A stretch of 64,000 nucleotides of DNA from Candidatus Saccharimonadales bacterium (lineage in GTDB: Bacteria > Patescibacteriota > Saccharimonadia > Saccharimonadales > SZUA-47): NCBI GenBank assembly GCA_041737385.1, contig JBGSRU010000002.1, positions 56,761 to 120,760 of the forward strand, in the 5' to 3' direction. The position numbers and the translations under genes were made by a program. Positions 3,313 to 56,810 of this stretch are shown here, piece after piece. Numbering within the stretch: the first letter of the stretch is position 1; the number at the start of each line of letters is the position of its first letter. The notes beneath the pieces were generated by a model. It was given only the letters and a program-made list of their open reading frames with translations, ran no database searches and was not told the DNA's origin.

Positions 3313-4020
3313 ATGGTACCGACACAACCTTATGCTGACTTTTCAGCTGATGTACTTCACGTAACATTTAATGATCTACAATTACTGATCACTGCTTTTA
3401 CTCACCGTTCATACGTCAATGAGCACAAGAAAACAGCTAAAGAGCACAATGAGCGACTTGAGTTTCTTGGTGATGCAGTGCTCGAACTTATCACGACAAG
3501 ATATTTGTTTGATAAATATGATGATCCAGAAGGTGTATTAACAAACTGGCGAAGCGCACTTGTACGCACTGAGAGTATTGGTGAAGCAGCTGGTAAACAC
3601 GGTTTTGAAGTTTTGCTACGATTGTCTCGAGGAGAAAAACGTGCAAGTTCAGATCGTGCAAGACTACAAATCCTCGCAAATGCATACGAAGCTGTTGTTG
3701 GAGCGCTGTATTTAGATCAAGGATACGACGCGGCTAAAGAGTTCATCGAACGTACGTTACTCGTGACTTTTGATGAAATATTGAAAACTGGCTCTTGGCA
3801 AGATCCAAAGTCACGCTACCAAGAAGTAGTGCAGAGCGATGAAGGACACACTCCTCAATACAAAGTGCTTAGTGAAGACGGTCCTGATCATGACAAGATT
3901 TTTAAGGTTGGTGTTTTTGTTGATGGCGGGTTACGAGCAGAAGGTGACGGACCAAGTAAACAGTCAGCACAGGTGTCGGCAGCAGAGAAAGCACTGACAA
4001 AACACAAAGACGCCACTTGA
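3313..4020 (+). CDS. rnc: Ribonuclease III
   Basis: RNase III signature ERLEFLGDAVLEL and a C-terminal dsRBD. TATTAT/TATAAA sits directly upstream of the ATG, suggesting a leaderless transcript. Confidence 0.9.
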   Translation: MVPTQPYADFSADVLHVTFNDLQLLITAFTHRSYVNEHKKTAKEHNERLEFLGDAVLELITTRYLFDKYDDPEGVLTNWRSALVRTESIGEAAGKHGFEVLLRLSRGEKRASSDRARLQILANAYEAVVGALYLDQGYDAAKEFIERTLLVTFDEILKTGSWQDPKSRYQEVVQSDEGHTPQYKVLSEDGPDHDKIFKVGVFVDGGLRAEGDGPSKQSAQVSAAEKALTKHKDAT

Positions 4021-38691: not shown

Positions 38692-39855
38692 ATGGAAAAA
38701 AAGTACAAAAGAGGTTTTCGGCTTCTTCAAACAGAAGCGATTCTGACATCGATGGTGATTACTATGCCGGTAATCAACCTACTATTTAACGATATAGGGA
38801 TGAGTCAGCTTCAAGTTGGTATTTCGCAAGCAATATTTATGATAGTTGCGCTTACTTTTGACGTGCCAACAGGCTGGCTTGCAGATCGATTCAGCCGTAA
38901 GGCTGTCAATATGTTTGGAGACTTGATTGCTGGTGTTGGCTTGTTGTTGTACGCAAGTGCAGGATCTTTCACTGTAGTGGTTATAAGTGAGATTATTGTG
39001 GGATTGGGTTTAGCCGCTACAAATGGAGCTGACGTTGGACTGCTTCGTGCTTACAGTGAAAAACTTGGTAAGTCTTATGCCCAAGTAAACGCCAGATTGT
39101 CTTCGATAAAACCACTATTTATGATTATCGGTACGCTTGTAGCAGGCTACATCGGTACATATAACATTCGGTGGCCTTTTGTGCTAGCTGGAATTGTGTA
39201 TTTTGTAGGTGCGTTTGTGTCTTTGTTTATACCAGAAATCGGCACAAAACGGATCACCGGAAAACATCCTTTGCGTGACATGATCGATATTGGATCCTTT
39301 ACATTTCGAGGCCATCGACAACTACGATGGCGCGTGTTTGCGGGGGTTTTTACTGGCAACCTAACACATACTGCTGTTTTTATTCTGACGCCAATATTTT
39401 TGGCTGCCGGATATGAAATTTCAATTCTTGGTATAGCGTGGGCACTGATGTGGGCAATGAATAGTGTCGGCGCAATCATAGCGAAGAAAATAGCCAGTAA
39501 CTTATCTGTACCAAAACAAGTGCTGTACCCGTCAATTATTGTTTTAGTTTCATACCTTGCTATGGCGATATCAATTAACAAAGTGAGTGTCTGGCTGTTT
39601 TTGGTGTTGAGTGCTTCTTTCGGTTGGTTTAGTGCGGTCATTGCACCAATTATTCAACACGCTGCTCCCGATGATATCCAGTCGACAGTAATTTCATTCG
39701 CTTCGGTTTTACGACGGTTATTTTATATTCCTTTAGTGATAATCATAAATGGACTTGGAAGCTTGCAATTAGAATATTCGATGCTGGGATCAGCTGTTAT
39801 CTACGGCGCCATGTTGCTGCTGCTCTACAAGCGACTAGTGTCTGCAGAGTCGTGA
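38692..39855 (+). CDS. MFS transporter
   Basis: Twelve-TM profile with an MFS motif-A-like loop (GWLADRFSRK). Confidence 0.75.
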   Translation: MEKKYKRGFRLLQTEAILTSMVITMPVINLLFNDIGMSQLQVGISQAIFMIVALTFDVPTGWLADRFSRKAVNMFGDLIAGVGLLLYASAGSFTVVVISEIIVGLGLAATNGADVGLLRAYSEKLGKSYAQVNARLSSIKPLFMIIGTLVAGYIGTYNIRWPFVLAGIVYFVGAFVSLFIPEIGTKRITGKHPLRDMIDIGSFTFRGHRQLRWRVFAGVFTGNLTHTAVFILTPIFLAAGYEISILGIAWALMWAMNSVGAIIAKKIASNLSVPKQVLYPSIIVLVSYLAMAISINKVSVWLFLVLSASFGWFSAVIAPIIQHAAPDDIQSTVISFASVLRRLFYIPLVIIINGLGSLQLEYSMLGSAVIYGAMLLLLYKRLVSAES

Positions 39856-39867
39856 TAAGCTAAAAGC

Positions 39868-40455
39868 ATGAACATAACAATTATTAGCGCAAGCATGCGC
39901 GGTGAATCACAGAGTCTCAAAGTGAGCAATTGGCTCGCTAAACACGTTACTGCACTAGGCGAAAAAGGATCTGTAGTGGACCTGCATGAAGTAAAGCTAC
40001 CAATGTTTGATGTTGGTGAGACGCCAGCACCACAAGCAGGGGAGCTGCTCGCTAAGCTCGAGGAGGCTGATGCGTTTGTTTTTGTTAGCCCTGAGTGGAA
40101 CGGTATGATGAGCCACGGTCTTATAAACATGCTTCATTATGCAGGACATCAGTTTGCCTATAAACCAGTAATGCTTGTCGGCGTCAGTGCTGGTCGCGGC
40201 GGTACATACCCATTAGAACAGATGAAAGTGGTCGGGCAGAAAAATAGACACTACGTGATAAGCCCTGAGAATTTAGTCGTAAGTGGCGTCAACGATGCCT
40301 TTAATGACACTGATATGTCAGAGTCCAGCGCCGATTTCCAACTTAAATCACGCGCAGATTATTCTTTGAAAATACTTATTGAACTATCAAAAGCCCTGAA
40401 GCCTGTTAGAGCGTCTGATGTCATTGATCTCGAGACCTTTGTAAACGGTGTCTAG
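39868..40455 (+). CDS. NAD(P)H-dependent FMN reductase (flavodoxin-like fold)
   Basis: N-terminus MNITIISASMRGESQS and EADAFVFVSPEWNG, typical of the FMN_red family. Confidence 0.65.
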   Translation: MNITIISASMRGESQSLKVSNWLAKHVTALGEKGSVVDLHEVKLPMFDVGETPAPQAGELLAKLEEADAFVFVSPEWNGMMSHGLINMLHYAGHQFAYKPVMLVGVSAGRGGTYPLEQMKVVGQKNRHYVISPENLVVSGVNDAFNDTDMSESSADFQLKSRADYSLKILIELSKALKPVRASDVIDLETFVNGV

Positions 40456-40487
40456 GTACTGATATAGCCTTGTGATACTATACGGTT

Positions 40488-41471
40488 ATGGTTAGTGTGT
40501 TTGAGGTGAGTGCTGTCTCTTTTACCTTAAATGGTGGAGGAGAAGTAGCGGTTATTCCTTTCCTTTCTATTGTATTGGTTGGAATCGTGTTTGTCGTGCC
40601 ACCTGCACTGTTTCGGAAAGCTTATTTTTACCGAAGACGACTCAAAAAAAACGTCATAACTGCAGAGTACGAACCACCTCTTGGACTTAATCCAGCTGAA
40701 ATAGGTTATTTGTTTGATGGGAAGTTACGAGAACGAGAGATAGCCGCAACGATAATTCACCTTGTGCAGAGGGGTTACTTGCACGTAAAAGCCGTTAAAA
40801 ATCAAAAGAAGATATACGCCGGTCCTCGTATTGGAGATGATCTAAAAACATACGAGAAAAAATTAATAGAACAAGCTCTTAGTGCGGGTGAAGAAGGCGC
40901 GAGCGCTGATCAACTATTGTCACGCTTCATGTCCTATAAATACAAATCAAAAAATTTAGAAGTGACGTCTGGTCCTAGAGAATTAATTTTCACACAGCTA
41001 GTTCATTCAGACTTGAAAAGACGTCAATACGTAAAAGGTTCTATGTTTAAAACCTTTTTACTTGGTGCAGTGAAAATTGGGTTGGGACTGCAAATCATCA
41101 CTATATTTATTCCTTTAACGATATTGTGGGTTGCTGCGACAGCTTCAAGCGGCGCAGCAGACATTAAAATTCTGCTTTGGATGTGGTTCATTGGATTAAT
41201 GATATGTATTTTCTTTTTCTTTCCTTTTGTTGTTGCTGGAGCGGTTTTAAACTATTTGAGGGGTAGAATTATTGGAAGAGAGTGGATTATCACCCCGAAA
41301 CTTAGTAGATTATGGCCTCAGATAGTTGGCTATAGACAATATATAAAGCTTGTCGAAAATGATCGGTTGGAGTTCTATTCAAAAGAAATGAAAAAAATCA
41401 GCAGAAATGATACTTTACCGTATGCCGTCGCTCTTGGGTTTGTAAAGAATTGGCGAGATCTACTGTATTAA
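40488..41471 (+). CDS. DUF2207-like membrane protein, short paralog lacking the N-terminal extracytoplasmic domain
   Basis: EYEPPLGLNPAEIGYLFDGKLREREIAATIIHLVQRGYL aligns with the mid-region of the 593-aa DUF2207 protein at 46248 (YFGRPKNVSVMQAAYVVGNKFVATHITASIVDLAIRGYI). Confidence 0.5.
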   Translation: MVSVFEVSAVSFTLNGGGEVAVIPFLSIVLVGIVFVVPPALFRKAYFYRRRLKKNVITAEYEPPLGLNPAEIGYLFDGKLREREIAATIIHLVQRGYLHVKAVKNQKKIYAGPRIGDDLKTYEKKLIEQALSAGEEGASADQLLSRFMSYKYKSKNLEVTSGPRELIFTQLVHSDLKRRQYVKGSMFKTFLLGAVKIGLGLQIITIFIPLTILWVAATASSGAADIKILLWMWFIGLMICIFFFFPFVVAGAVLNYLRGRIIGREWIITPKLSRLWPQIVGYRQYIKLVENDRLEFYSKEMKKISRNDTLPYAVALGFVKNWRDLLY

Positions 41472-41543
41472 ACATAGATGCATAATTAAGCCTTAGCTTT
41501 AAGCGCTTTTCAACAGAGATGTTGTCGCGTACAATAGGTGTAA

Positions 41544-42563
41544 ATGAAGCAAATAAACGCGGCACGAGTAGTGCTAAAAAAACAGTTTGAGAAATTAGAG
41601 GATAAAAAAGCGATTTTGCGTGCTCCTGAGTTGCGTGCGCTGTTCGATGGGATTAGAGATGTTCCGGCTGAAGAGCGCGGAGCTTACGGAAAAGCAGTCA
41701 ACGGCCTGAAAGAGGAAGTTGCTAGCTGGGTAGACGACAGTAACGGTGTCGAAGAAGATACTGCCTCTATTGACGTCACCGCGCCGTGGGACGAGAATAC
41801 GCCAATAGACAAACGGCCACGCTTCCTGCCAAGTGAGCAAGGCACCGTACATCCACTCTTAACTGAAATTGAGTTAATCTGTGATATCTACCAACGAATG
41901 GGTTTTGTTGTTGAGGATTCACGCGAAATAGATGATGACTTTCACATGTTTGAATCATTAAATTTTCCAGAAGACCATCCCGCGCGTGATGATTACGACA
42001 CGTTCATGACCGATGAAGGCTTGGTGGCGCCCGCTCACACCAGCACGATGCAAAACAGAATGCTGCAGAAATATAAAGGCAATCTAGAGAGTGGTGAACC
42101 GATTGCTGTGGTTGTTCCTGATAGAGTGTTTAGAAATGAAGATCTTGATGCGACACACGAACATACCTTTTATCAGATTGAGGGAATTTACGTTGGCAAA
42201 GGCGTTAATGTCGGTAATTTGATCGCAACTTTGTCAGCATTTATGAATGAATATTTTGGTCAAGAACTCAAAACAAAGCTTCAACCATTTTATTTTCCCT
42301 TCACTGAACCGAGTTTTGAGTTTGCGATTGAGCGACCTGACATCTTGAAAAAAGATAATTCAGAAGAACAAAAATGGCTTGAGCTACTTGGTTGTGGCAT
42401 GATTCACCCCAATGTACTGAGTGCCGCTAACATCGATCCAACAGTATATACAGGCTTTGCTTGGGGAAATGGCATTGAGCGAATGGTAATGATGAAAAAT
42501 GGTATTGAAGACGTTCGGCACTTTGAATCAGCAAACTTGAAATTCTTGAGGCAATTCAAATGA
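41544..42563 (+). CDS. pheS: Phenylalanyl-tRNA synthetase alpha subunit
   Basis: Class II motif 2 FRNEDLDATHEHTFYQIEG and motif 3 GFAWGNGIERMVM. Confidence 0.95.
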   Translation: MKQINAARVVLKKQFEKLEDKKAILRAPELRALFDGIRDVPAEERGAYGKAVNGLKEEVASWVDDSNGVEEDTASIDVTAPWDENTPIDKRPRFLPSEQGTVHPLLTEIELICDIYQRMGFVVEDSREIDDDFHMFESLNFPEDHPARDDYDTFMTDEGLVAPAHTSTMQNRMLQKYKGNLESGEPIAVVVPDRVFRNEDLDATHEHTFYQIEGIYVGKGVNVGNLIATLSAFMNEYFGQELKTKLQPFYFPFTEPSFEFAIERPDILKKDNSEEQKWLELLGCGMIHPNVLSAANIDPTVYTGFAWGNGIERMVMMKNGIEDVRHFESANLKFLRQFK

Positions 42564-42739
42564 AATTTAAGACAAAACAATATATTCTAGTCGTGCTGGG
42601 TTTGCTTTCCCTGCTGATAATCATTGGTGATATTTTGGATAAGGATTGGTTTTTTGCTGTTGGTAATTTTGTATTTTTTGGTGGTACACTCGTTTTTCTA
42701 TACTTTGATTTAAAGTCTTCAGCCAAAGGGAGAAAGTAG
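42560..42739 (+). CDS. Small two-TM membrane protein (59 aa; below the ORF-track cutoff)
   Basis: Its ATG overlaps the pheS stop (ATGA). Two hydrophobic helices (ILVVLGLLSLLIIIG, FAVGNFVFFGGTLVFLYF). Its stop overlaps the GTG start of the next gene. Confidence 0.4.
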   Translation: MKFKTKQYILVVLGLLSLLIIIGDILDKDWFFAVGNFVFFGGTLVFLYFDLKSSAKGRK

Positions 42740-43317
42740 TGAAAAACGCTATATTAATTCCGGGTAGACCCGATAGGGAAGAATGGTACAACTCCGACGG
42801 TCCAACTAATAGCAATAGCCACTGGTTCCCTTGGTTATCCAAGCAATTGATCCTTAAAGATATCCATGCTGTTGCGATAGAAATGCCGTTAGCATTTATG
42901 CCTAGATACGAGGCATGGAAGAGAGAATTTGAGAGGTTTGAAATAACAGAAGAGACAATACTCATAGGACATAGTTGCGGAGGAGGGTTTTTAGTCAGGT
43001 GGCTGAGTGAAAATAAGGATAGGAAAGTTGGGAAAGTCATCCTAGTCGCTCCGTGGATAAACCCTGAGAACAATCCTGCTTCAGACACTTCAGATTTCTT
43101 CAATTTTGAGATTGATCCAGATTTCGTATATAGGACAAATGGTACTACAATTTTTAGTTCGGATAATGATCATAAGAGCATTCAGGAAACAATTAAAATA
43201 CTACAAGAAGTAGTAAAAAATTTGAAGCTAGTAGATTTTCATAACTACGGTCATTTTTGCTACGGAGACATGAAAACAGAACAGTTCCCTGAACTTTTAA
43301 AAGAGGCAGTAGCATGA
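42739..43317 (+). CDS. Alpha/beta hydrolase, YdeN/RBBP9-like serine hydrolase
   Basis: GTG start; nucleophile elbow GHSCGG; C-terminal FHNYGHF (His). It lies inside the pheS-pheT interval. Confidence 0.6.
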   Translation: MKNAILIPGRPDREEWYNSDGPTNSNSHWFPWLSKQLILKDIHAVAIEMPLAFMPRYEAWKREFERFEITEETILIGHSCGGGFLVRWLSENKDRKVGKVILVAPWINPENNPASDTSDFFNFEIDPDFVYRTNGTTIFSSDNDHKSIQETIKILQEVVKNLKLVDFHNYGHFCYGDMKTEQFPELLKEAVA

Positions 43318-43760
43318 GCACAATTTTCGATAAGATAGTTTCTGGAGAGATGAAATCATGGATAGTCTGGGAAGATGAAAATTATTTGGCGTTTCTAACT
43401 CCTTTTCCTAATACACCTGGATTTACTGTGGTGATTCCTAAAGAAAATATGAGTGACTACTTATTCAGCATGGAAGACGATGCTTATTCAGAGTTGTTAC
43501 TAGCATCAAGAAAAGTTGTAAAGAAACTAGAGAAAGCATTTGATACGCCTCGAGTTGCAATGATTGTTGAAGGAACAGGTGTCGCACATGTACACATAAA
43601 GTTATTGCCACTAATTGGAGAGCTTGCAGGACAGACAGATGTTTGGAGTAAAGAAAAAGAGTTTCACTCAGAATATATTGGTTATATTACTTCAGCTGAA
43701 GGCCCTAAAATGGACGACGTAGTACTAGAAGAAATACAAAAGAGGATTATAGAGTCATGA
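43314..43760 (+). CDS. HIT-family (Hint-like) protein with a non-canonical histidine-triad region
   Basis: Hint-like N-terminus IFDKIVSGEMKSWIVWEDENYLAFLTPFPNTPGFTVVIPKENM, but the triad region reads VAHVHIKLLP rather than HxHxHxx. 4-nt overlap with both neighbours. Confidence 0.6.
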   Translation: MSTIFDKIVSGEMKSWIVWEDENYLAFLTPFPNTPGFTVVIPKENMSDYLFSMEDDAYSELLLASRKVVKKLEKAFDTPRVAMIVEGTGVAHVHIKLLPLIGELAGQTDVWSKEKEFHSEYIGYITSAEGPKMDDVVLEEIQKRIIES

Positions 43761-46276
43761 AAGTTAGTTTAAATTTAGCTCAAGAGTTCAGTAATGTTGA
43801 TTTGAAGTCTATTCCTCATGATGAACTCGTAACTAAGATTGGCGCTCAACTAGGTGCCGTTGAAGAAGTAGTCGACTATGCACCACGATATAAAAATATA
43901 GTTGTAGTGAAAGTTGTTGAGTGTAAGAAGCATCCGAACGCTGACAAGCTTAGTCTGTGTCGCGTTGATGACGGAGGAGTTACTGCAAACGTTGAAAGAG
44001 GTGATGATGGGCTGGTCCAAGTCGTGTGTGGAGCACCGAACGTAAAAGCTGGAATGTTTGCAGTCTGGATACCACCTGAAGCAACAGTGCCAAGTACGCT
44101 CGACAAAGAATCATTCGTACTAGAAGCACGCGAACTGCGGGGTAAGGTAAGTAATGGTATGCTCGCGAGTCCCAAAGAGCTCGCAATTAGTGAAGAACAT
44201 GACGGTATCCTTGAGCTCACTGAGCAAGACGCTGGCCGTGAGCCAAAAATTGGCGAGTCTATAACGCATTATTTTGGGCTCGATGACTTTGTTATCGATT
44301 GTGAAAACAAAATGTTCACTCATCGTCCTGATTGTTTTGGTAATCTTGGTGTTGCACGTGAGCTAGCAGGGATTAGTGGACTAAAGTTTGAAAGCCCCAA
44401 GTGGTATTTAAATCTGCCTATTTTTGAATCACCAGATAAATTGCCTATGAAAGTTGAAAATAACGCCACTGAATTATCTAGCAGATTTACCGTAGTTACT
44501 ATGGACGGTATTAAAATCAAGTCTAGCCCAACTTGGATGACAAACTTACTGAAAAGAGTAGGAATCAAATCTATAAATAATGTAGTTGATATCACTAATT
44601 ATGTAATGCATTTAACCGGTCAGCCAATGCACGCATTTGACTATGACAAACTTCAGAAGTACTCTGACGAGCCGTCCATTCAAGTTCGAAACGCTCTAGA
44701 AAACGAAGAGATTACACTGCTGGGAAATAAGAAAATAGTCATGAATAGTTCGGATTTAGTTCTTGCGACCGATAAAACATCGGTTGATATTGCTGGAATA
44801 ATGGGTGGTGCTAACACTGAAGTTGATGATTCTACAAAACGTATCGTTCTGACATGCACGAACTTTGATATGTACGCAATTCGTCGTTCTAGTATGCGGC
44901 ACGGCTTGTTTACTGACGCAGTAACGAGAAATAATAAAGGAATTAGTCCTCTACAGAATGACAGAATAATTGCGTATGCCATGAAACTTATGACTGAACA
45001 CGCTGGGGCAGAGCAAGCTAGCCGAGTATACGATTTGAGTAGTTTTGATATCCACTCAGATAACTTGAACCACGTTGAGACAACAATTGAGTTTATCAAC
45101 CAGCGTCTGGGGACTTCACTCATGCCCGAAGAAGTTAAAAACCTTTTAGAAAATGTTGAATTTAGTGTTGCGCTTCAAGGAGAAACACTACTTATTACTG
45201 CACCATTCTGGAGAATGGATATTGCGATTGGTGAGGATATCGTTGAAGAAGTGGGTCGGTTATATGGGTATCAAAATGTTCCTACAATTTTGCCAGCACG
45301 AACTTCTAAACCTGCTAATAGAAATAAAGGAAGAGATTTTACGCGTCATATACGGTATACGCTGCGCAAAGCTGGTGCTAATGAAGTACTAACATATAGT
45401 TTCGTGCACGGTGACCTGCTGAAGAATACGGGTACGGATCCTGAAAAGTGGGCCTACCATGTGCGTAACGCGCTTAGTCCCGACCTGCAGTATTATCGAA
45501 CGAGCTTAGCGCCAAGTCTACTAGCGAAGATACATAGCAATCTGAAAGCAGGTGCCGGCAGGGGCGACAATGAGTTTGCTTTGTTTGAAGTAGGAAAAGT
45601 ACATGTAAAAGGTGAAATGGAGCACGATGAGCCAACACTTCCAAAGCAGATGAAGCGAATAGCATTTGTCTATGCCGCCGATGATAAAACGGCCAAAAAA
45701 TATCACGGCTCGCCGTACTATCAAGCTAAAAAATATCTTGATAGTATTACTCACGGACAAGCGACATATAGCCCACTCGATACAAACGAGTATCCGGTTG
45801 TGTCTGCATATGAGCAATCACGCTCAGCAGTTGTCACCGTCAACGAACAGATACTTGGTGTGATTGGCGAGTATACTTCAAACGCGAAAAAACACCTTAA
45901 ACTCCCAGCTTTTTGTGCTGGATTTGAACTAGATGTTGATTTATTAAAACAACATCTTAACCAAGAGACGTATAGCCCATTATCAACGTATCCAGATACT
46001 CTGCAGGACATAACCTTTGAAGTTGAATCTGATGTTAGCTGGGGGCATCTTGAGCAGCTTCTCCATGCAGAACTAGCAGTAGCTAAAGCAGAAAGTGGCT
46101 ACGACTACACGATTGAGCCTCTAGATATCTTTAAAAAAGAGGATGATAATAGGCGCATTAGTTACCGTATACAGCTTACACACCACAATAAAACGATGAA
46201 AACTGAAGAAGTTAATAGCTTGTTAGATCAAATCGCAAAGGCAGCTCATGAGAATCTTCACGCAAAACGCATATAA
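43757..46276 (+). CDS. pheT: Phenylalanyl-tRNA synthetase beta subunit
   Basis: 839 aa with an N-terminal tRNA-binding (EMAP-like) domain, B3/B4, B5 and a C-terminal FDX-ACB-like region. Confidence 0.9.
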   Translation: MKVSLNLAQEFSNVDLKSIPHDELVTKIGAQLGAVEEVVDYAPRYKNIVVVKVVECKKHPNADKLSLCRVDDGGVTANVERGDDGLVQVVCGAPNVKAGMFAVWIPPEATVPSTLDKESFVLEARELRGKVSNGMLASPKELAISEEHDGILELTEQDAGREPKIGESITHYFGLDDFVIDCENKMFTHRPDCFGNLGVARELAGISGLKFESPKWYLNLPIFESPDKLPMKVENNATELSSRFTVVTMDGIKIKSSPTWMTNLLKRVGIKSINNVVDITNYVMHLTGQPMHAFDYDKLQKYSDEPSIQVRNALENEEITLLGNKKIVMNSSDLVLATDKTSVDIAGIMGGANTEVDDSTKRIVLTCTNFDMYAIRRSSMRHGLFTDAVTRNNKGISPLQNDRIIAYAMKLMTEHAGAEQASRVYDLSSFDIHSDNLNHVETTIEFINQRLGTSLMPEEVKNLLENVEFSVALQGETLLITAPFWRMDIAIGEDIVEEVGRLYGYQNVPTILPARTSKPANRNKGRDFTRHIRYTLRKAGANEVLTYSFVHGDLLKNTGTDPEKWAYHVRNALSPDLQYYRTSLAPSLLAKIHSNLKAGAGRGDNEFALFEVGKVHVKGEMEHDEPTLPKQMKRIAFVYAADDKTAKKYHGSPYYQAKKYLDSITHGQATYSPLDTNEYPVVSAYEQSRSAVVTVNEQILGVIGEYTSNAKKHLKLPAFCAGFELDVDLLKQHLNQETYSPLSTYPDTLQDITFEVESDVSWGHLEQLLHAELAVAKAESGYDYTIEPLDIFKKEDDNRRISYRIQLTHHNKTMKTEEVNSLLDQIAKAAHENLHAKRI

Positions 46277-48029
46277 GCTACTGAAGTGCACTTTGATCGC
46301 TAGCATTTTCTCCATACTGTTAGTTGCTTCGTCATCAGCTCAAGGAGTGCAAGATTTTGTTATTACATCCTTTGACGCGTCATATGAATTAACCAATGAA
46401 GATCCTCAAGGGTTGTTAAAAATAACCGAGACTATAGAGCTGAACTTCAGTGGTCAAAATCAAGGAATTCTGCGGGCGATACCAAATGACTATAAAGGCA
46501 ACAAACAAAATGTGAAGATAGTATCAGTTCAAAGAGCAACCACGACCAGTGCTGAGGCTATGCCTTATAGGCAGGAACCATATTTTACCTATCTGGAAAA
46601 TGGCAATCTTATCGTGCGCATCGGACAGGCGGGAGTTTATATAACTGGTCCACAGAGCTACGAACTAACTTATGAAGTTGAAAACGTCATTACATTTTAT
46701 GATGACTATGATGAATTGTTCTGGGATATAAATGGTGATCAGTGGCTACAACCGTTTGTAACAGTGTCTGTAGAAGCGAGAACAAGTGCGAGAATCCGAG
46801 ATCCAGGAGTGATTTGTTATGCAGGAGCAAATGACTCTAAAGAACAATCATGTGATGTAACGAGTGAAGCCACAGTGTTCTCAGTAAACACCACTAGGGC
46901 TCTTGATAAAGGAGAGACGCTGAGCGTCGTTGCTGCATTCGAAAAGGATTATTTTACGCCGTTATCTTGGTGGGAAGTGAATAAAAACTTCGTTTTGGTG
47001 AGCCCGATATTTTTGCTTCAAGCCGCAGCAGGTCGTTCGGCCTACAAAAAATGGAAAAAATACGGTAAAGACTACAAGAAGCGCGGGATCACCGTACCGT
47101 ACTTTGGTCGCCCTAAAAACGTTAGTGTGATGCAGGCAGCATACGTCGTCGGCAACAAGTTTGTAGCAACACACATTACGGCTTCTATTGTCGATTTAGC
47201 TATTAGGGGCTATATACAAATAACGGAAAAGAAGGATGGTCGTATAGTTACGCACGAACTGACAATTGTTAAAGTCGTAGACGAAACGCTCACTGATGAC
47301 GAGCAAACGCTCATAAAGGAAATATTTGGAAGCGCGTCTGTAGGCAACACGATCAAACTTGAAAACGAGAAAAATAAATTATATAAAGCAGTCACAAAGC
47401 TGTCAAAACTAATCGATGAAAGTATGTTTGAGAAGGGTTACTACGAACTGTCTCCCACCAATGCATACAAAAAAATCGGTTCAACATTTTTTTTGAGTAT
47501 TGTAGCGATTGTTATAGGGTTTGCAGCGGCAAGCTATAGTCAAGGAACTACAGCAATTACGAGCATAGTTCTCATAATAGTAGTTATTGTTTTTACAGCG
47601 TTGATGAGCAAACGGAGTAAATCTGGAATGATGTTAGTTGAACACATGGAAGGCCTTAAGCTCTACCTAAAACAGGCTGAGAAGGACAGGATTCAGCAAC
47701 AAGATGCAGTTGAGGCTCCGTTAGCTGTGAATAGTGGTCAGCCTGTAAGAGACGTAAAATTTTTCGAGAAGCTACTGCCATACGCAATTGTTATGGGTGT
47801 CGAAAAATCATGGGCTGGTGCATTCAAAGATATCTACACCCAACCACCAGAGTGGTACGGTGGTAACTGGAACACCTTCACAACCGCCGCTTTGATTAGT
47901 GGTATTGCCAATACGAACGCTGCAACGGTAGCGTCATTTTCAGCGCCGGCCAGCTCAAGCGGTTCTGGTTTCTCTGGAGGCGGAGGCGCTGGTGGCGGCG
48001 GTGGCGGCGGAGGCGGCGGAGGCTGGTGA
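46248..48029 (+). CDS. DUF2207-family membrane protein with a Gly-rich C-terminal tail
   Basis: N-terminal signal/TM segment, a large extracytoplasmic domain, TM helices, and a C-terminus SGFSGGGGAGGGGGGGGGGGW, which is characteristic of DUF2207. Confidence 0.6.
   Translation: MRIFTQNAYKLLKCTLIASIFSILLVASSSAQGVQDFVITSFDASYELTNEDPQGLLKITETIELNFSGQNQGILRAIPNDYKGNKQNVKIVSVQRATTTSAEAMPYRQEPYFTYLENGNLIVRIGQAGVYITGPQSYELTYEVENVITFYDDYDELFWDINGDQWLQPFVTVSVEARTSARIRDPGVICYAGANDSKEQSCDVTSEATVFSVNTTRALDKGETLSVVAAFEKDYFTPLSWWEVNKNFVLVSPIFLLQAAAGRSAYKKWKKYGKDYKKRGITVPYFGRPKNVSVMQAAYVVGNKFVATHITASIVDLAIRGYIQITEKKDGRIVTHELTIVKVVDETLTDDEQTLIKEIFGSASVGNTIKLENEKNKLYKAVTKLSKLIDESMFEKGYYELSPTNAYKKIGSTFFLSIVAIVIGFAAASYSQGTTAITSIVLIIVVIVFTALMSKRSKSGMMLVEHMEGLKLYLKQAEKDRIQQQDAVEAPLAVNSGQPVRDVKFFEKLLPYAIVMGVEKSWAGAFKDIYTQPPEWYGGNWNTFTTAALISGIANTNAATVASFSAPASSSGSGFSGGGGAGGGGGGGGGGGW
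47976..48026 (+). repeat. (GGN)n simple-sequence tract encoding poly-Gly
   Basis: ggaggcggaggcgctggtggcggcggtggcggcggaggcggcggaggctgg. Confidence 0.8.
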
Positions 48030-55034: not shown

Positions 55035-56810
55035 ATGAAACAAATTTTTAGAATTTTGAGTATTGGCAAAGAGCTGCGGATGAGTTATGCGGCTATTACA
55101 GTGTTCACGACACTGCTTTCGTTGGTGACCATTATCGTACCGCTATTGTCTGGATGGGCTATCGACGAAATGCGCAAAGGAACAGAGGCAGATGTGCGCT
55201 ATGTGGTGCTTCTCGCTACTGGAATATTCCTTCTCGATCTCAGTCAGACACTACTCAGCAACGTAAACGGCTATATCGGTGATCAGATCCAAGCTCGTTT
55301 ACAGAAGATCCTGAGTGATACTTATTACAAACATCTTCTGACGCTTCCACAAAGTTATTTTGATTCTGAGCTGTCAGGAAAAATAATCAACAGATTGAAT
55401 CGGTCTATTGCGCAGATAACTAACTTCCTGCACTCTATGAGTAACAGCTTCCTGCAGTTTATTTTCAGCACTGTCTTAAGCTTGGCTATTATCACCATAT
55501 ATAGCTGGCAGGTTGCACTGATGCTGTTCATGCTCTACCCGATTTTTATCTGGTTGACGGTACGCAGTAGTGGTACATGGATGGGCTATCAGAAAACTAA
55601 GAACAAGCATATCGACGTCGCAAGCGGACGTTTTGCTGAGGCGGTTGGTCAAATCAAAGTTGTTAAAAGTTATAATCAAGAAGAGCGTGAGTTGAGCTTT
55701 TTTGATAAACATTTATCTGTTGTAGTCAAAACAAATCGACCACAATCTCTGCATTGGCACAAAAAAGATGTTTCGCGGCGGCTCGTTCTGAACGTCATAT
55801 TCTACTGTGTTTATCTGTACATTTTTGTCCAAGGAGCTAAAGGAGTGTTGTCGCCTGGTCAAGTAGTCGCACTTATCTTATATGCAATGAATATTCGCAT
55901 ACCTATATTTACGATTAGCTGGCTGGTTGAGCAAACACAGAAAGCCGTAGCTGATAGTAAAGATTACTTTGAGATTATGAACATTGAGCCTGCAATTAAA
56001 GACAGTGAAGACGCCGTTGATCTCGTTGTTTCAAAGCCGGTTATATCTTTTAACAACGTGCGGTTCTCATACGACAGGGGCGAAGAAGTGATCAAGGGTA
56101 TAACTATAGACCTGAAACCAAGTAAAAAAGTAGCGCTTGTTGGCGAAAGTGGCGAAGGCAAAACTACACTAACGAATTTGCTCCTACGACTTTATGAACC
56201 GACAAGCGGTACTATCACAATCGACGGAAAAAATATTATGAATGTGACGCAGCAGAGCTTACGTCAAAATATCGGGGTAGTTTTCCAAGAACCTAACTTG
56301 TTTAGTGGCACAATAAAAGAAAATATTACCTACGCAAACCCTAAAGCATCAGTTGCAGAAATAGAATCAGCAGCGAAGGCAGCGAACGCACATGAATTTA
56401 TCGCGAAACTAGACAAAGGCTATGACACAGAGATCGGCGAAAGAGGACTCAAGTTGTCTGGTGGACAGAAACAACGTATCGCAATCGCACGGGCTATCTT
56501 AAAAGACGCGCCTATTTTGATTCTTGATGAAGCAACCAGCAGTCTGGATAGTAAATCAGAACTTCTTGTACAAGAAGCACTAGAACGACTTATGAAAAAC
56601 CGCACAACCATTATTATTGCTCACCGTTTAAGTACAATTCAGAATGTCGATACTATTATCGCGCTCAAAGGCGGAAAGGTATCTGAAAAGGGATCTCCTA
56701 AAGAACTGGCCTCTGGTAACGGCATATATGCCAAATTATTAGCAGTACAAACAGCCCGATCAGCAGAGGACCGAACCAAAGCATTAGCGAAATTTGGAAT
56801 TGTCTCCTGA
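55035..56810 (+). CDS. ABC exporter, fused permease/ATPase (MsbA-like), second copy
   Basis: Walker A GESGEGKTT; signature LSGGQKQRIAIARA; Walker B ILILDEATSSLD. Confidence 0.85.
   Translation: MKQIFRILSIGKELRMSYAAITVFTTLLSLVTIIVPLLSGWAIDEMRKGTEADVRYVVLLATGIFLLDLSQTLLSNVNGYIGDQIQARLQKILSDTYYKHLLTLPQSYFDSELSGKIINRLNRSIAQITNFLHSMSNSFLQFIFSTVLSLAIITIYSWQVALMLFMLYPIFIWLTVRSSGTWMGYQKTKNKHIDVASGRFAEAVGQIKVVKSYNQEERELSFFDKHLSVVVKTNRPQSLHWHKKDVSRRLVLNVIFYCVYLYIFVQGAKGVLSPGQVVALILYAMNIRIPIFTISWLVEQTQKAVADSKDYFEIMNIEPAIKDSEDAVDLVVSKPVISFNNVRFSYDRGEEVIKGITIDLKPSKKVALVGESGEGKTTLTNLLLRLYEPTSGTITIDGKNIMNVTQQSLRQNIGVVFQEPNLFSGTIKENITYANPKASVAEIESAAKAANAHEFIAKLDKGYDTEIGERGLKLSGGQKQRIAIARAILKDAPILILDEATSSLDSKSELLVQEALERLMKNRTTIIIAHRLSTIQNVDTIIALKGGKVSEKGSPKELASGNGIYAKLLAVQTARSAEDRTKALAKFGIVS

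Follow-up and report, generated by a model that had tools for sequence, protein, structure and literature searches.

The window analyzed here is a stretch of 64,000 nucleotides (nt) from Candidatus Saccharimonadales bacterium (GenBank assembly GCA_041737385.1, contig JBGSRU010000002.1, forward-strand positions 56,761 to 120,760), and our subject is the locus within it at which pheS and pheT, the genes for the alpha and beta subunits of phenylalanyl-tRNA synthetase (PheRS), are separated by three other genes. A mechanical listing of the window's open reading frames (ORFs), with the junctions read straight from the sequence, gives a single chain of five co-oriented genes on the + strand: pheS, a gene for a small protein of 59 amino acids (aa), a gene for an alpha/beta serine hydrolase, a gene for a histidine triad (HIT) protein, and pheT (Table 1). 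Both PheRS subunit models, TIGR00468 and TIGR00472, score over their cut-offs, and the start of pheT overlaps the stop of the preceding gene, as it also does in related loci in which nothing separates the two subunit genes.

All four junctions overlap, by ATGA between pheS and the small ORF, between the hydrolase and HIT genes, and between the HIT gene and pheT, and by TAGTG between the small ORF and the hydrolase gene. Each of the four downstream starts has a Shine-Dalgarno motif within the gene before it, at a distance of 8 nt for the small ORF (GAGG), 6 nt for the hydrolase gene (AGGGAG), 7 nt for the HIT gene (AAGAGG), and 10 nt for pheT (AAGAGGA). There are no promoter-like or terminator-like sites on the + strand inside 42560-43760, and the number of such sites in the region equals the expectation from shuffled sequence. 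An Rfam scan of 40000-47000 for an RNA leader or riboswitch near pheS gave no match at E<=1. The first-pass annotation, made from the letters of the window, had described three accessory genes wedged between pheS and pheT with overlapping stops and starts, and the ORF positions and all four junctions bear it out. Its further claim was that the three genes must be co-translated with PheRS. Because of the overlaps, the Shine-Dalgarno motifs, and the lack of internal + strand signals, we infer that the inserted genes are co-transcribed and translationally coupled with PheRS; the "must," however, is stronger than this evidence, and "probably" is the word that we would keep.

The window's PheS is 50-81% identical to the PheS proteins of 80 species representatives of Saccharibacteria (TM7), and we assign the window to a Saccharibacterium on this similarity. 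It is extremely improbable that the arrangement arose from chimeric assembly or binning, or that the inserted ORFs are decaying non-functional DNA. To be sure, the window comes from a metagenome-type assembly, and the GC content of the inserted genes (0.33 for the small ORF, 0.39 for the hydrolase gene, and 0.37 for the HIT gene) is somewhat below that of the 50 long ORFs of the window (0.423 +/- 0.025). A chimeric join or assembly error was also what the first-pass annotation had named as fatal to its claim. However, in the Logan assembly of run SRR28170464, a 48-kb contig matches window 38739-43701 (4963 nt) with 100% identity. The matched stretch begins upstream of pheS and crosses the first three junctions; the contig stops inside the HIT gene, short of the HIT/pheT junction. 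Given this identity and the presence of the same genes at the same place in several related species, an assembler-specific chimera is excluded. Decay is countered by intact reading frames, conserved catalytic residues, confident structure models of the HIT protein and the hydrolase, and the preserved overlaps and Shine-Dalgarno motifs. An exact look-up of the hydrolase matched the SRR28170464 assembly, and that of the HIT protein gave no match.

Table 1. Features of the pheS-pheT locus, numbered from the first letter of the window
Feature	Position	Strand	Basis or remark
Candidate promoter upstream of pheS	41507..41535	+	TTTTCA-17-TACAAT; weak, a match to consensus alone
pheS, phenylalanyl-tRNA synthetase alpha subunit	41544..42563	+	PF01409, E=8e-76; TIGR00468, 239.5 bits
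Conserved pheS 3' end, GAGGCAATTCAAATGA	42548..42563	+	Gives the Shine-Dalgarno motif and the overlapping stop/start to the next gene
59-aa small protein with two hydrophobic segments	42560..42739	+	ORF listing, hydropathy
YdeN/RBBP9-family alpha/beta serine hydrolase, 192 aa, GTG start	42739..43317	+	PF06821
Hydrolase Ser79 codon	42973..42975	+	Catalytic triad
Hydrolase Asp144 codon	43168..43170	+	Catalytic triad
Hydrolase His172 codon	43252..43254	+	Catalytic triad
HIT phosphoramidase assigned to the MccH clade, 148 aa	43314..43760	+	PF01230 and signature residues
HIT Phe37 codon (GH to GF relative to canonical HIT)	43422..43424	+	Equivalent of MccH F44 (PMC7157772)
HIT active-site motif E86-G-T-G-V-A-H92-V-H94-I-K96	43569..43601	+	E-x5-H-x-H-x-K
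Shine-Dalgarno motif AAGAGGA for pheT, inside the HIT 3' end	43740..43746	+	Read from sequence
pheT, phenylalanyl-tRNA synthetase beta subunit	43757..46276	+	TIGR00472, 583 bits; B3_4, B5, tRNA_bind, and FDX-ACB domains

The pheS/pheT overlap is a variable cargo slot

The pheS/pheT overlap is a variable slot: cargo genes come, go, and change order there, while the linkage and shared orientation of pheS and pheT persist. In 76 loci (75 species and the window; loci and contigs are cited by L numbers), we mapped the two subunit genes and the three cargo proteins and listed the ORFs between pheS and pheT. The subunit genes touch in 38 of the 76 loci, with a gap of -1 to +59 nt, and in the other 38 the slot is occupied by 1-7 ORFs spanning 159-4226 nt. 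Still bigger slots of ~5.5 kb are found in L171 (a contig from an ENA assembly) and L126 (metagenome contigs). Most of the cargo ORFs (85 of 91) have the same orientation as pheS, and 41 of the 48 internal cargo junctions overlap, most often by 4 nt. Clustering divides the cargo into ~30 families. HIT genes are the commonest, present in 15 of the 38 occupied loci, followed by a DUF5674 gene with a partner gene (7-9 loci), an alpha/beta hydrolase of ~235 aa (8 loci), SDR proteins (8 loci), and the PF06821 hydrolase (at least 7 loci); SGNH, PNPOx-like, asparaginase-N-like, Nudix, MazG-like, NYN, CYTH, His_Phos_1, RidA-like, and alcohol dehydrogenase (ADH) families are rarer. Comparative synteny had been proposed in the first-pass annotation as a check; it finds the slot occupied in relatives, with the same genes at the same place, and the window's arrangement is not unique.

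Occupancy is patchy on a neighbor-joining tree of PheS+PheT, and sister loci differ from each other (L003/L004, L017/L019, L030/L042, and L062/L046). Compared with its neighboring junctions, to which our controls are confined, the pheS/pheT junction stands out. Among 25 loci with a DUF2207 gene after pheT, the pheS/pheT junction is occupied in 16 and the pheT/DUF2207 junction in 2; among 12 loci with a DUF2207 gene before pheS, the pheS/pheT junction is occupied in 11 and the upstream DUF2207/pheS junction is expanded in 1. The sequence at the junction is also telling. Where the slot is empty, the 3' end of pheS reads ...TTGAGGCAATTTAA|ATGAAAGTTAGTTTAAAT..., and the GAGG of the last pheS codons is the ribosome-binding site of pheT. 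This TTGAGGCAATTTAA|ATGA context, which in unoccupied loci lies directly before pheT, lies in occupied loci before the first cargo gene, and there the last cargo gene contributes a new purine-rich motif ahead of the conserved start of pheT. Therefore, insertions occurred exactly at the overlap, and the coupling relay was rebuilt around them.

None of the loci examined has an integrase or transposase gene between pheS and pheT, and no inverted or direct repeats bracket the window's insert, where we found short AT-rich chance repeats only; a mobile-element origin was rejected on these grounds. The cargo resembles integron cassette arrays in being exchangeable, promoter-less, and co-oriented behind one upstream promoter. 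An integron array was likewise rejected, because the slots hold no integrase and the window's insert has no attC-like repeats and no intergenic spacers, its genes overlapping instead. A closer likeness is to the hot spots between core genes whose islets are exchanged by homologous recombination: the flanks are conserved, the content is variable, sister genomes differ, integrases and repeats are lacking, and the host is competent. In contrast to such hot spots, the slot lies within a coupled operon for two subunits of one essential enzyme, its insertions occur at a stop/start overlap, and its cargo is nearly always co-oriented, with the coupling re-created. The slot is thus an unusual variant of a hot spot flanked by core genes, and one unreported in the literature searched, in which we found no paper that links Saccharibacteria with pheS/pheT organization or discusses a histidine triad gene of Saccharibacteria.

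Cargo distances follow those of the synthetase poorly. Pairwise distances of cargo proteins and of PheS+PheT are correlated only loosely for the HIT proteins (Spearman 0.24, Mantel P ~0.07), the PF06821 hydrolases (Spearman 0.19, Mantel P ~0.26), the alpha/beta hydrolases (Spearman 0.12, Mantel P ~0.27), and the DUF5674 proteins (Spearman 0.36, Mantel P ~0.07). The HIT proteins of L008 and L010 are 49-53% identical to the HIT proteins of their neighbors, which are 74-81% identical to each other, and the L015 HIT protein shares 68% identity with its counterpart in the distant L074 but 62-65% with the HIT proteins of L015's relatives. Gene order is shuffled even within the window's clade: small ORF-hydrolase-HIT in the window, small ORF-HIT-hydrolase in L007, small ORF-HIT-membrane protein in L002, and small ORF-SGNH-HIT-hydrolase-SDR in L009. 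Because of the poor fit to the tree, the odd HIT proteins, and the shuffled order, a history of gain, loss, and exchange fits better than loss alone. It is quite improbable that a longer ancestral pheS-cargo-pheT operon was inherited vertically and became patchy by differential loss, with no horizontal transfer. Such a history would suit the presence of slot HIT genes in several deep clades, the trio of small ORF, HIT gene, and hydrolase gene common to the window, L007, and L009, and the cargo pairs that follow the species tree (for example, L017 with L027 and L070 with L071). However, it would need ancestral status for ~30 families, and it is contradicted by the variation of gene order between close relatives, by the HIT identities of L008, L010, and L015, and by a cargo GC content under the genome's gene average. 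Natural competence is a trait of Saccharibacteria, in which homologous recombination over arms of ~1 kb integrates the DNA (PMC10633639). Competence is thus a plausible route, in which pheS and pheT would serve as arms; the cargo would most probably have arrived by natural transformation and homologous recombination on these two genes.

Several other features of the slot and its surroundings were observed. The DUF5674 gene (~113 aa) in every case overlaps the gene after it, which is ~107 aa long and has no Pfam match (L004, L012, L013, L023, L026, L048, and L054), and the pair recurs as a unit in these seven species, often directly after pheS. Nucleotide house-cleaning enzymes are abundant in the slot or its extension in other Saccharibacterial contigs, mostly from ENA/NCBI metagenome assemblies: MazG-like, NYN, HIT, and NUDIX genes in L168 (9042-11118), CYTH and His_Phos_1 genes in L171 (6186-11595), where two genes are on the opposite strand, and, judged from N-terminal sequences alone, NUDIX- and Maf-like ORFs downstream of pheS in L093 and L108. 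DUF2207 membrane-protein genes lie on both sides of the pheS-pheT block (window 40488-41471 and 46248-48029), and this flanking arrangement is kept in many related loci. The downstream one, taken at its longest-ORF start, shares 29 nt with the end of pheT and has at its own end a Gly-rich tail, SGFSGGGGAGGGGGGGGGGGW. The long ORFs of the window are strand biased (40 on the + strand and 10 on the - strand), and GC skew is positive across 38-50 kb; these features suggest a location on a single replichore, with the genes oriented along replication.

The HIT protein, the hydrolase, and the small protein

The HIT protein of the window matches PF01230 at 43.7 bits against a cut-off of 21.5 (E=4.5e-11). 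Its AlphaFold2 (AF2) model has a predicted local distance difference test score (pLDDT) of 84.5, and Foldseek ranks 3p0t and 7mqw first, with a probability of 1.0 to both of these and to HINT1. A phmmer search of Protein Data Bank (PDB) sequences likewise returns the mycobacterial HIT proteins 3p0t and 7mqw first, relative to which HLHVH has become HVHIK and GH has become GF. The first-pass annotation had noticed the motif AHVHIK in place of HxHxH, and the substitution is real and conserved across the family. In wide searches (1380 proteins at E<=1e-5 in a word-indexed collection and 2087 at E<=0.001 among 50% cluster representatives), [H/Y]-x-H-x-K is the family motif; its central His is invariant, and so is a Glu located six residues ahead of its first position. 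H/Y-x-H-x-K dominates among single-domain representatives clustered at 50% identity. H94, the central nucleophilic His, is invariant in alignments of 22, 51, and 48 sequences, and E86, H94, and K96 are all invariant across the 48 homologs; conservation of K96 is at least 90% once the proteins of L008 and L010 are counted. The F37 position is Phe in 98 of 120 close homologs and another hydrophobic residue in most of the remainder. Residues 100-148 form a C-terminal extension past the HIT core, whose conserved segment contains W111 and E-G-P-K-M and which aligns over its full length with a standalone HIT protein of Salmonella that carries the same signature and is 46% identical to the window's protein overall.

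These residues are those of the clade of MccH from Hyalangium minutum and its standalone homologs (Yagmurov et al. 2020, PMC7157772). The clade signature is E-x5-H-x-H-x-K-x-x, with K103 in place of the third His, F44 in place of the upstream His, and E93 pairing with the Lys (PMC7157772). F37, E86, H94, and K96 of the window's protein correspond to MccH F44, E93, H101, and K103, with a constant offset of -7. The two also share the C-terminal extension, which in MccH is proposed to shape the aspartamide pocket, and 3P0T, the nearest solved structure for both and the modeling template for MccH (PMC7157772). On this signature, rather than by a tree with MccH, we file the window's protein as an MccH-clade phosphoramidase. 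The suggestion of the first-pass annotation that catalysis may be altered thus does not hold as it was put: H-x-H-x-K with the Phe and the Glu is the signature of a characterized enzyme (PMC7157772). MccH splits the P-N bond of processed microcin C, an aspartamide-adenylate that inhibits AspRS, into AMP and aspartamide; this substrate is not a normal aminoacyl-adenylate, and MccH has no activity on epsilon-K-AMP, whereas HinT has none on processed microcin C (PMC7157772). The H101N and K103H variants are inactive, and the Lys is therefore essential (PMC7157772). Standalone genes of the clade are known in bacteria of the candidate phyla radiation (CPR), and of two such homologs from Parcubacteria (CPR) that were expressed in Escherichia coli, one conferred resistance to microcin C (PMC7157772). 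Unlike MccH, the window's gene lies outside an mcc antibiotic cluster and inside an aminoacyl-tRNA synthetase operon. Its loop EGPKM is unlike the enterobacterial one, and its aminoacyl specificity may therefore differ.

The canonical Hint/HinT branch (human HINT1 and E. coli HinT) has the same HIT fold and nucleophilic central His and acts on AMP-linked phosphoramidates and aminoacyl-adenylates. HINT has been linked to the lysyl-AMP made by LysRS. The window's protein differs in K96 for the third His, F37 for the upstream His, and ~50 extra C-terminal residues, and it scores far under the cut-offs of the NCBIfam HinT models, and the canonical branch was rejected. Also rejected was the GalT/Ap4A-phosphorylase type (H-x-H-x-Q), a motif confined to the HIT proteins of L008 and L010, which retain GH, have a His for the MccH Glu, and read H-L-H-A-Q. 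In these close relatives of the window, the HIT gene lies just upstream of pheT, beside asparaginase-N-like genes (L008:11723-12178 and L010:11463-11909). The slot HIT protein of L023 is canonical (H-L-H-F-H). Outside the Saccharibacteria, small mobilizable plasmids of Acinetobacter, among them a 6.6-kb one of Acinetobacter lwoffii (L178, NZ_CP046298.1, at 3449-3925) and CP119246.1, carry an HxHxK-type HIT gene beside a VapBC module, with GA instead of GF upstream. This location is consistent with a transferable, resistance-type function for the clade.

The hydrolase was described in the first-pass annotation as YdeN/RBBP9-like with a GHSCGG motif, and both descriptions stand. It matches PF06821 (Ser_hydrolase) at 46.2 bits against a cut-off of 22 (E=6e-12), the closest solved structure by sequence is Bacillus subtilis YdeN (1uxo, E=9e-11), followed by RBBP9, and its AF2 model (pLDDT 93) has template modeling (TM) scores of 0.78-0.80 to 1uxo and 0.75-0.79 to RBBP9. 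The GHSCG elbow and the triad Ser79, Asp144, and His172 are in place, and the triad is conserved in 124-125 of 125 homologs. With YdeN (1UXO) and human RBBP9 (2QS9/7OEX), the protein shares a minimal alpha/beta hydrolase of ~190 aa, G-H-S-x-G, a Ser-Asp-His triad, and TM scores of 0.75-0.80; in contrast, sequence identity is 21-22%. RBBP9 is an aromatic aminopeptidase with a preference for Phe and Tyr at the N terminus (PMC8866121). The residues of its hydrophobic cage and amine anchor are Tyr99, Leu103, Phe140, Leu141, and Glu108. In a pairwise alignment at 22% identity, Tyr99 is matched by the invariant W106, and S115/D116, which are conserved, fall close to Glu108; the loop is modeled with low confidence (pLDDT ~65), and W106 and D116 are tentative counterparts. 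By analogy with RBBP9, the hydrolase could be an N-terminal aromatic aminopeptidase or an esterase. The PF06821 hydrolase is the sole slot occupant in three species (L028, L042, and L055), and ~66% identical relatives lie away from pheS and pheT in unrelated accessory neighborhoods of other genomes.

Hydropathy gives the 59-aa ORF two hydrophobic segments, in agreement with the two transmembrane segments assigned in the first-pass annotation. Positional homologs directly follow pheS in L002 and L009 and lie just upstream of the HIT gene in L007, and the family has the conserved motif DW..A.GN...G..KS.AKG. A hidden Markov model of three sequences of this family added one more positional homolog. 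A database search with the ORF returned only itself, and its relatives are limited to L002, L007, and L009; by these searches, the ORF is restricted to the window's lineage.

Expression and function of the cargo

We think it probable that the genes in this variable slot are expressed by read-through and translational coupling, and that the slot carries, in the window, a detoxifying HIT protein of the MccH type, a membrane protein specific to the lineage, and a hydrolase that may be an aminopeptidase or an esterase. A single transcript would start upstream of pheS; the conserved pheS 3' end would give the first cargo gene a ribosome-binding site and an overlapping start; ribosomes would be handed from gene to gene across the cargo overlaps of 1-4 nt; and the last cargo gene would bring the ribosome-binding site for pheT. 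By analogy with the characterized family, His94 of the HIT protein would attack the alpha-phosphorus of an aminoacyl-AMP phosphoramidate, with a proton from Lys96, which would be held by Glu86 and Phe37 and substitute for the missing third His. The products would be AMP and an amino-acid amide, and the enzyme would neutralize inhibitors of class II aminoacyl-tRNA synthetases that mimic adenylates.

Several points weigh against this reading. Our loci were picked by PheS similarity and are a biased sample. Horizontal transfer is deduced from short proteins, with a Mantel P of ~0.07 for HIT; sliding-window identity of PheS and PheT among taxa with similar cargo is dominated by domain-specific conservation and uninformative on recombination; and differential loss could be behind part of the pattern. 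As for the detoxifying activity, the other Parcubacteria homolog of MccH was inactive on microcin C (PMC7157772), the C-terminal loop proposed to determine specificity is EGPKM in Saccharibacteria versus HDHERA in Salmonella, and the C-terminal region of our HIT model is of low confidence (pLDDT ~60 for residues 101-130). Finally, HIT genes are over-represented among the occupied slots (15 of 38) and belong to three lineages: MccH-type, GH/HxHxQ (L008 and L010), and HxHxH (L023). The HIT gene is also near pheS or pheT in 19 of the 24 metagenomic HIT loci with full flanks, which exceeds what neutral cargo predicts and favors a tie to the synthetase operon. When all metagenomic HIT loci are counted, pheS or pheT is nearby in 50 of 80, many of these loci being close relatives of each other.

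The MccH-type HIT domain also occurs in fusions (proteins are cited by P numbers): with class II synthetase-type cores that match asparagine synthetase A (AsnA) models best (P0171, P0156, P0206, and P0129), with a class II tRNA-synt_2 core (P0141), with Asparaginase_2 of the isoaspartyl peptidase type (P0126, P0137, P0129, and P0141), with histidine phosphatase (P0228), and with GNAT acetyltransferases (P0211 and P0223). Given the three HIT lineages in the slot and the fusions to synthetase cores, some link of this HIT type to aminoacyl-adenylate chemistry is well founded, but a link specific to PheRS lacks such footing. The AsnA-like and asparaginase fusions would fit aspartyl-adenylate and aspartamide chemistry, and they suggest a tie to class II adenylate-forming enzymes generally rather than to PheRS. 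Tandem double-HIT proteins of ~300 aa were observed as well, in which the MccH-type domain is the C-terminal half and the first half is degenerate. Some of the long models with several domains, among them a carnitine acyltransferase part, may result from the merging of eukaryotic gene calls.

Could the cargo nevertheless be a dedicated PheRS module, in which the HIT protein removes Phe-AMP, mis-activated adenylates, or diadenosine tetraphosphate (Ap4A), the hydrolase releases N-terminal Phe from scavenged peptides to supply the PheRS of an amino-acid auxotroph, and dosage follows PheRS? We regard this as unlikely. The abundance and threefold origin of slot HIT genes, which extend to deep clades (L070, L071, and L074, with PheS 50-51% identical to the window's), their proximity to pheS or pheT in metagenomes, and the fusions to AsnA-like and other class II cores all count in its favor, as does the recurrence of the PF06821 hydrolase, a structural neighbor of the Phe/Tyr-preferring RBBP9, in the slots of at least seven species. 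PheRS is among the strongest Ap4A producers (PMC10148737), and clearing of its by-products by the HIT protein is conceivable. However, the slot also receives SDR, SGNH, PNPOx, Nudix, MazG, NYN, DUF5674, RidA, and ADH genes, none of them evidently connected with PheRS, and it is free of cargo in half of the species. The position of the HIT gene within the slot varies. Relatives of the HIT protein (~65% identical) and of the hydrolase are located elsewhere in other genomes; those of the HIT protein occur in two metagenome-assembled genomes labeled Moranbacteria and Microgenomates, which are other CPR lineages. The characterized MccH, moreover, is specific for an aspartyl-type phosphoramidate, and the fusions are to Asn/Asp-type cores and not to PheRS. 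The first-pass annotation had taken the position of the HIT gene to suggest a dedicated role in clearing Phe-AMP or mischarged adenylates, or in signaling. By itself, the position is no sign of a dedicated Phe-AMP role: ~30 unrelated families share the junction, and HIT relatives lie elsewhere. Even within Saccharibacterial contigs, some HIT genes have no pheS or pheT within 4 kb (L115, L119, L132, L157, and L149). In L149 (1240-4459), a metagenome contig, the HIT gene lies ~0.9 kb from a divergent thrS-like gene and has on its other side a tRNA-guanine transglycosylase-like gene, both identified from N-terminal sequences alone.

A HIT gene beside a synthetase gene has a parallel in mycobacteria, where thrS (Rv2614c) adjoins Rv2613c, which encodes an Ap4A phosphorylase. 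That pair, in contrast to the window's genes, involves another branch of the HIT family and another synthetase, and its HIT gene does not lie between two subunit genes.

Beyond a variable slot with coupled expression, a more ambitious proposal is that the overlap is an integrase-free platform for the expression of exchangeable genes. The conserved pheS end, TTGAGGCAATTTAAATGA, would provide a ribosome-binding site and a start context, pheS and pheT would be the homology arms in natural transformation, coupling would be selected, and cargo related to aminoacyl-adenylates and amino-acid supply would be preferentially retained, so that the slot would be a flexible module that protects and provisions the synthetase in an auxotrophic epibiont. 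Selection would then maintain overlap and co-orientation in the cargo, by which the stoichiometry of the two PheRS subunits would be preserved. The cargo retained under this proposal would be MccH-type and other HIT proteins, RBBP9-like and S33-like peptidases, and asparaginase-like proteins, in an organism whose host belongs to the antibiotic-producing Actinobacteria. We put this forward tentatively and hold it to be somewhat doubtful.

The pheS/pheT overlap is usually regarded as a fixed device for translational coupling. Half of the sampled Saccharibacteria nevertheless accept 1-7 foreign genes at it, and the coupling is rebuilt every time. The slot therefore bears on the means by which accessory genes are expressed in tiny, promoter-poor CPR genomes and on the sites where new genes can land in naturally competent epibionts. 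By its signature, the window's HIT protein is a new member of a known clade, and the known family inactivates synthetase inhibitors that mimic adenylates. Saccharibacteria live attached to Actinobacteria, and an MccH-type HIT protein as the commonest cargo points to intrinsic resistance to peptide-nucleotide antibiotics that is widespread in Saccharibacteria. The fusions to AsnA-like cores and Asparaginase_2 offer a fresh handle on the natural substrates of the clade. The importance of the slot would be greater still if it is true that it is a selected expression platform, or that the HIT protein or the hydrolase serves PheRS.

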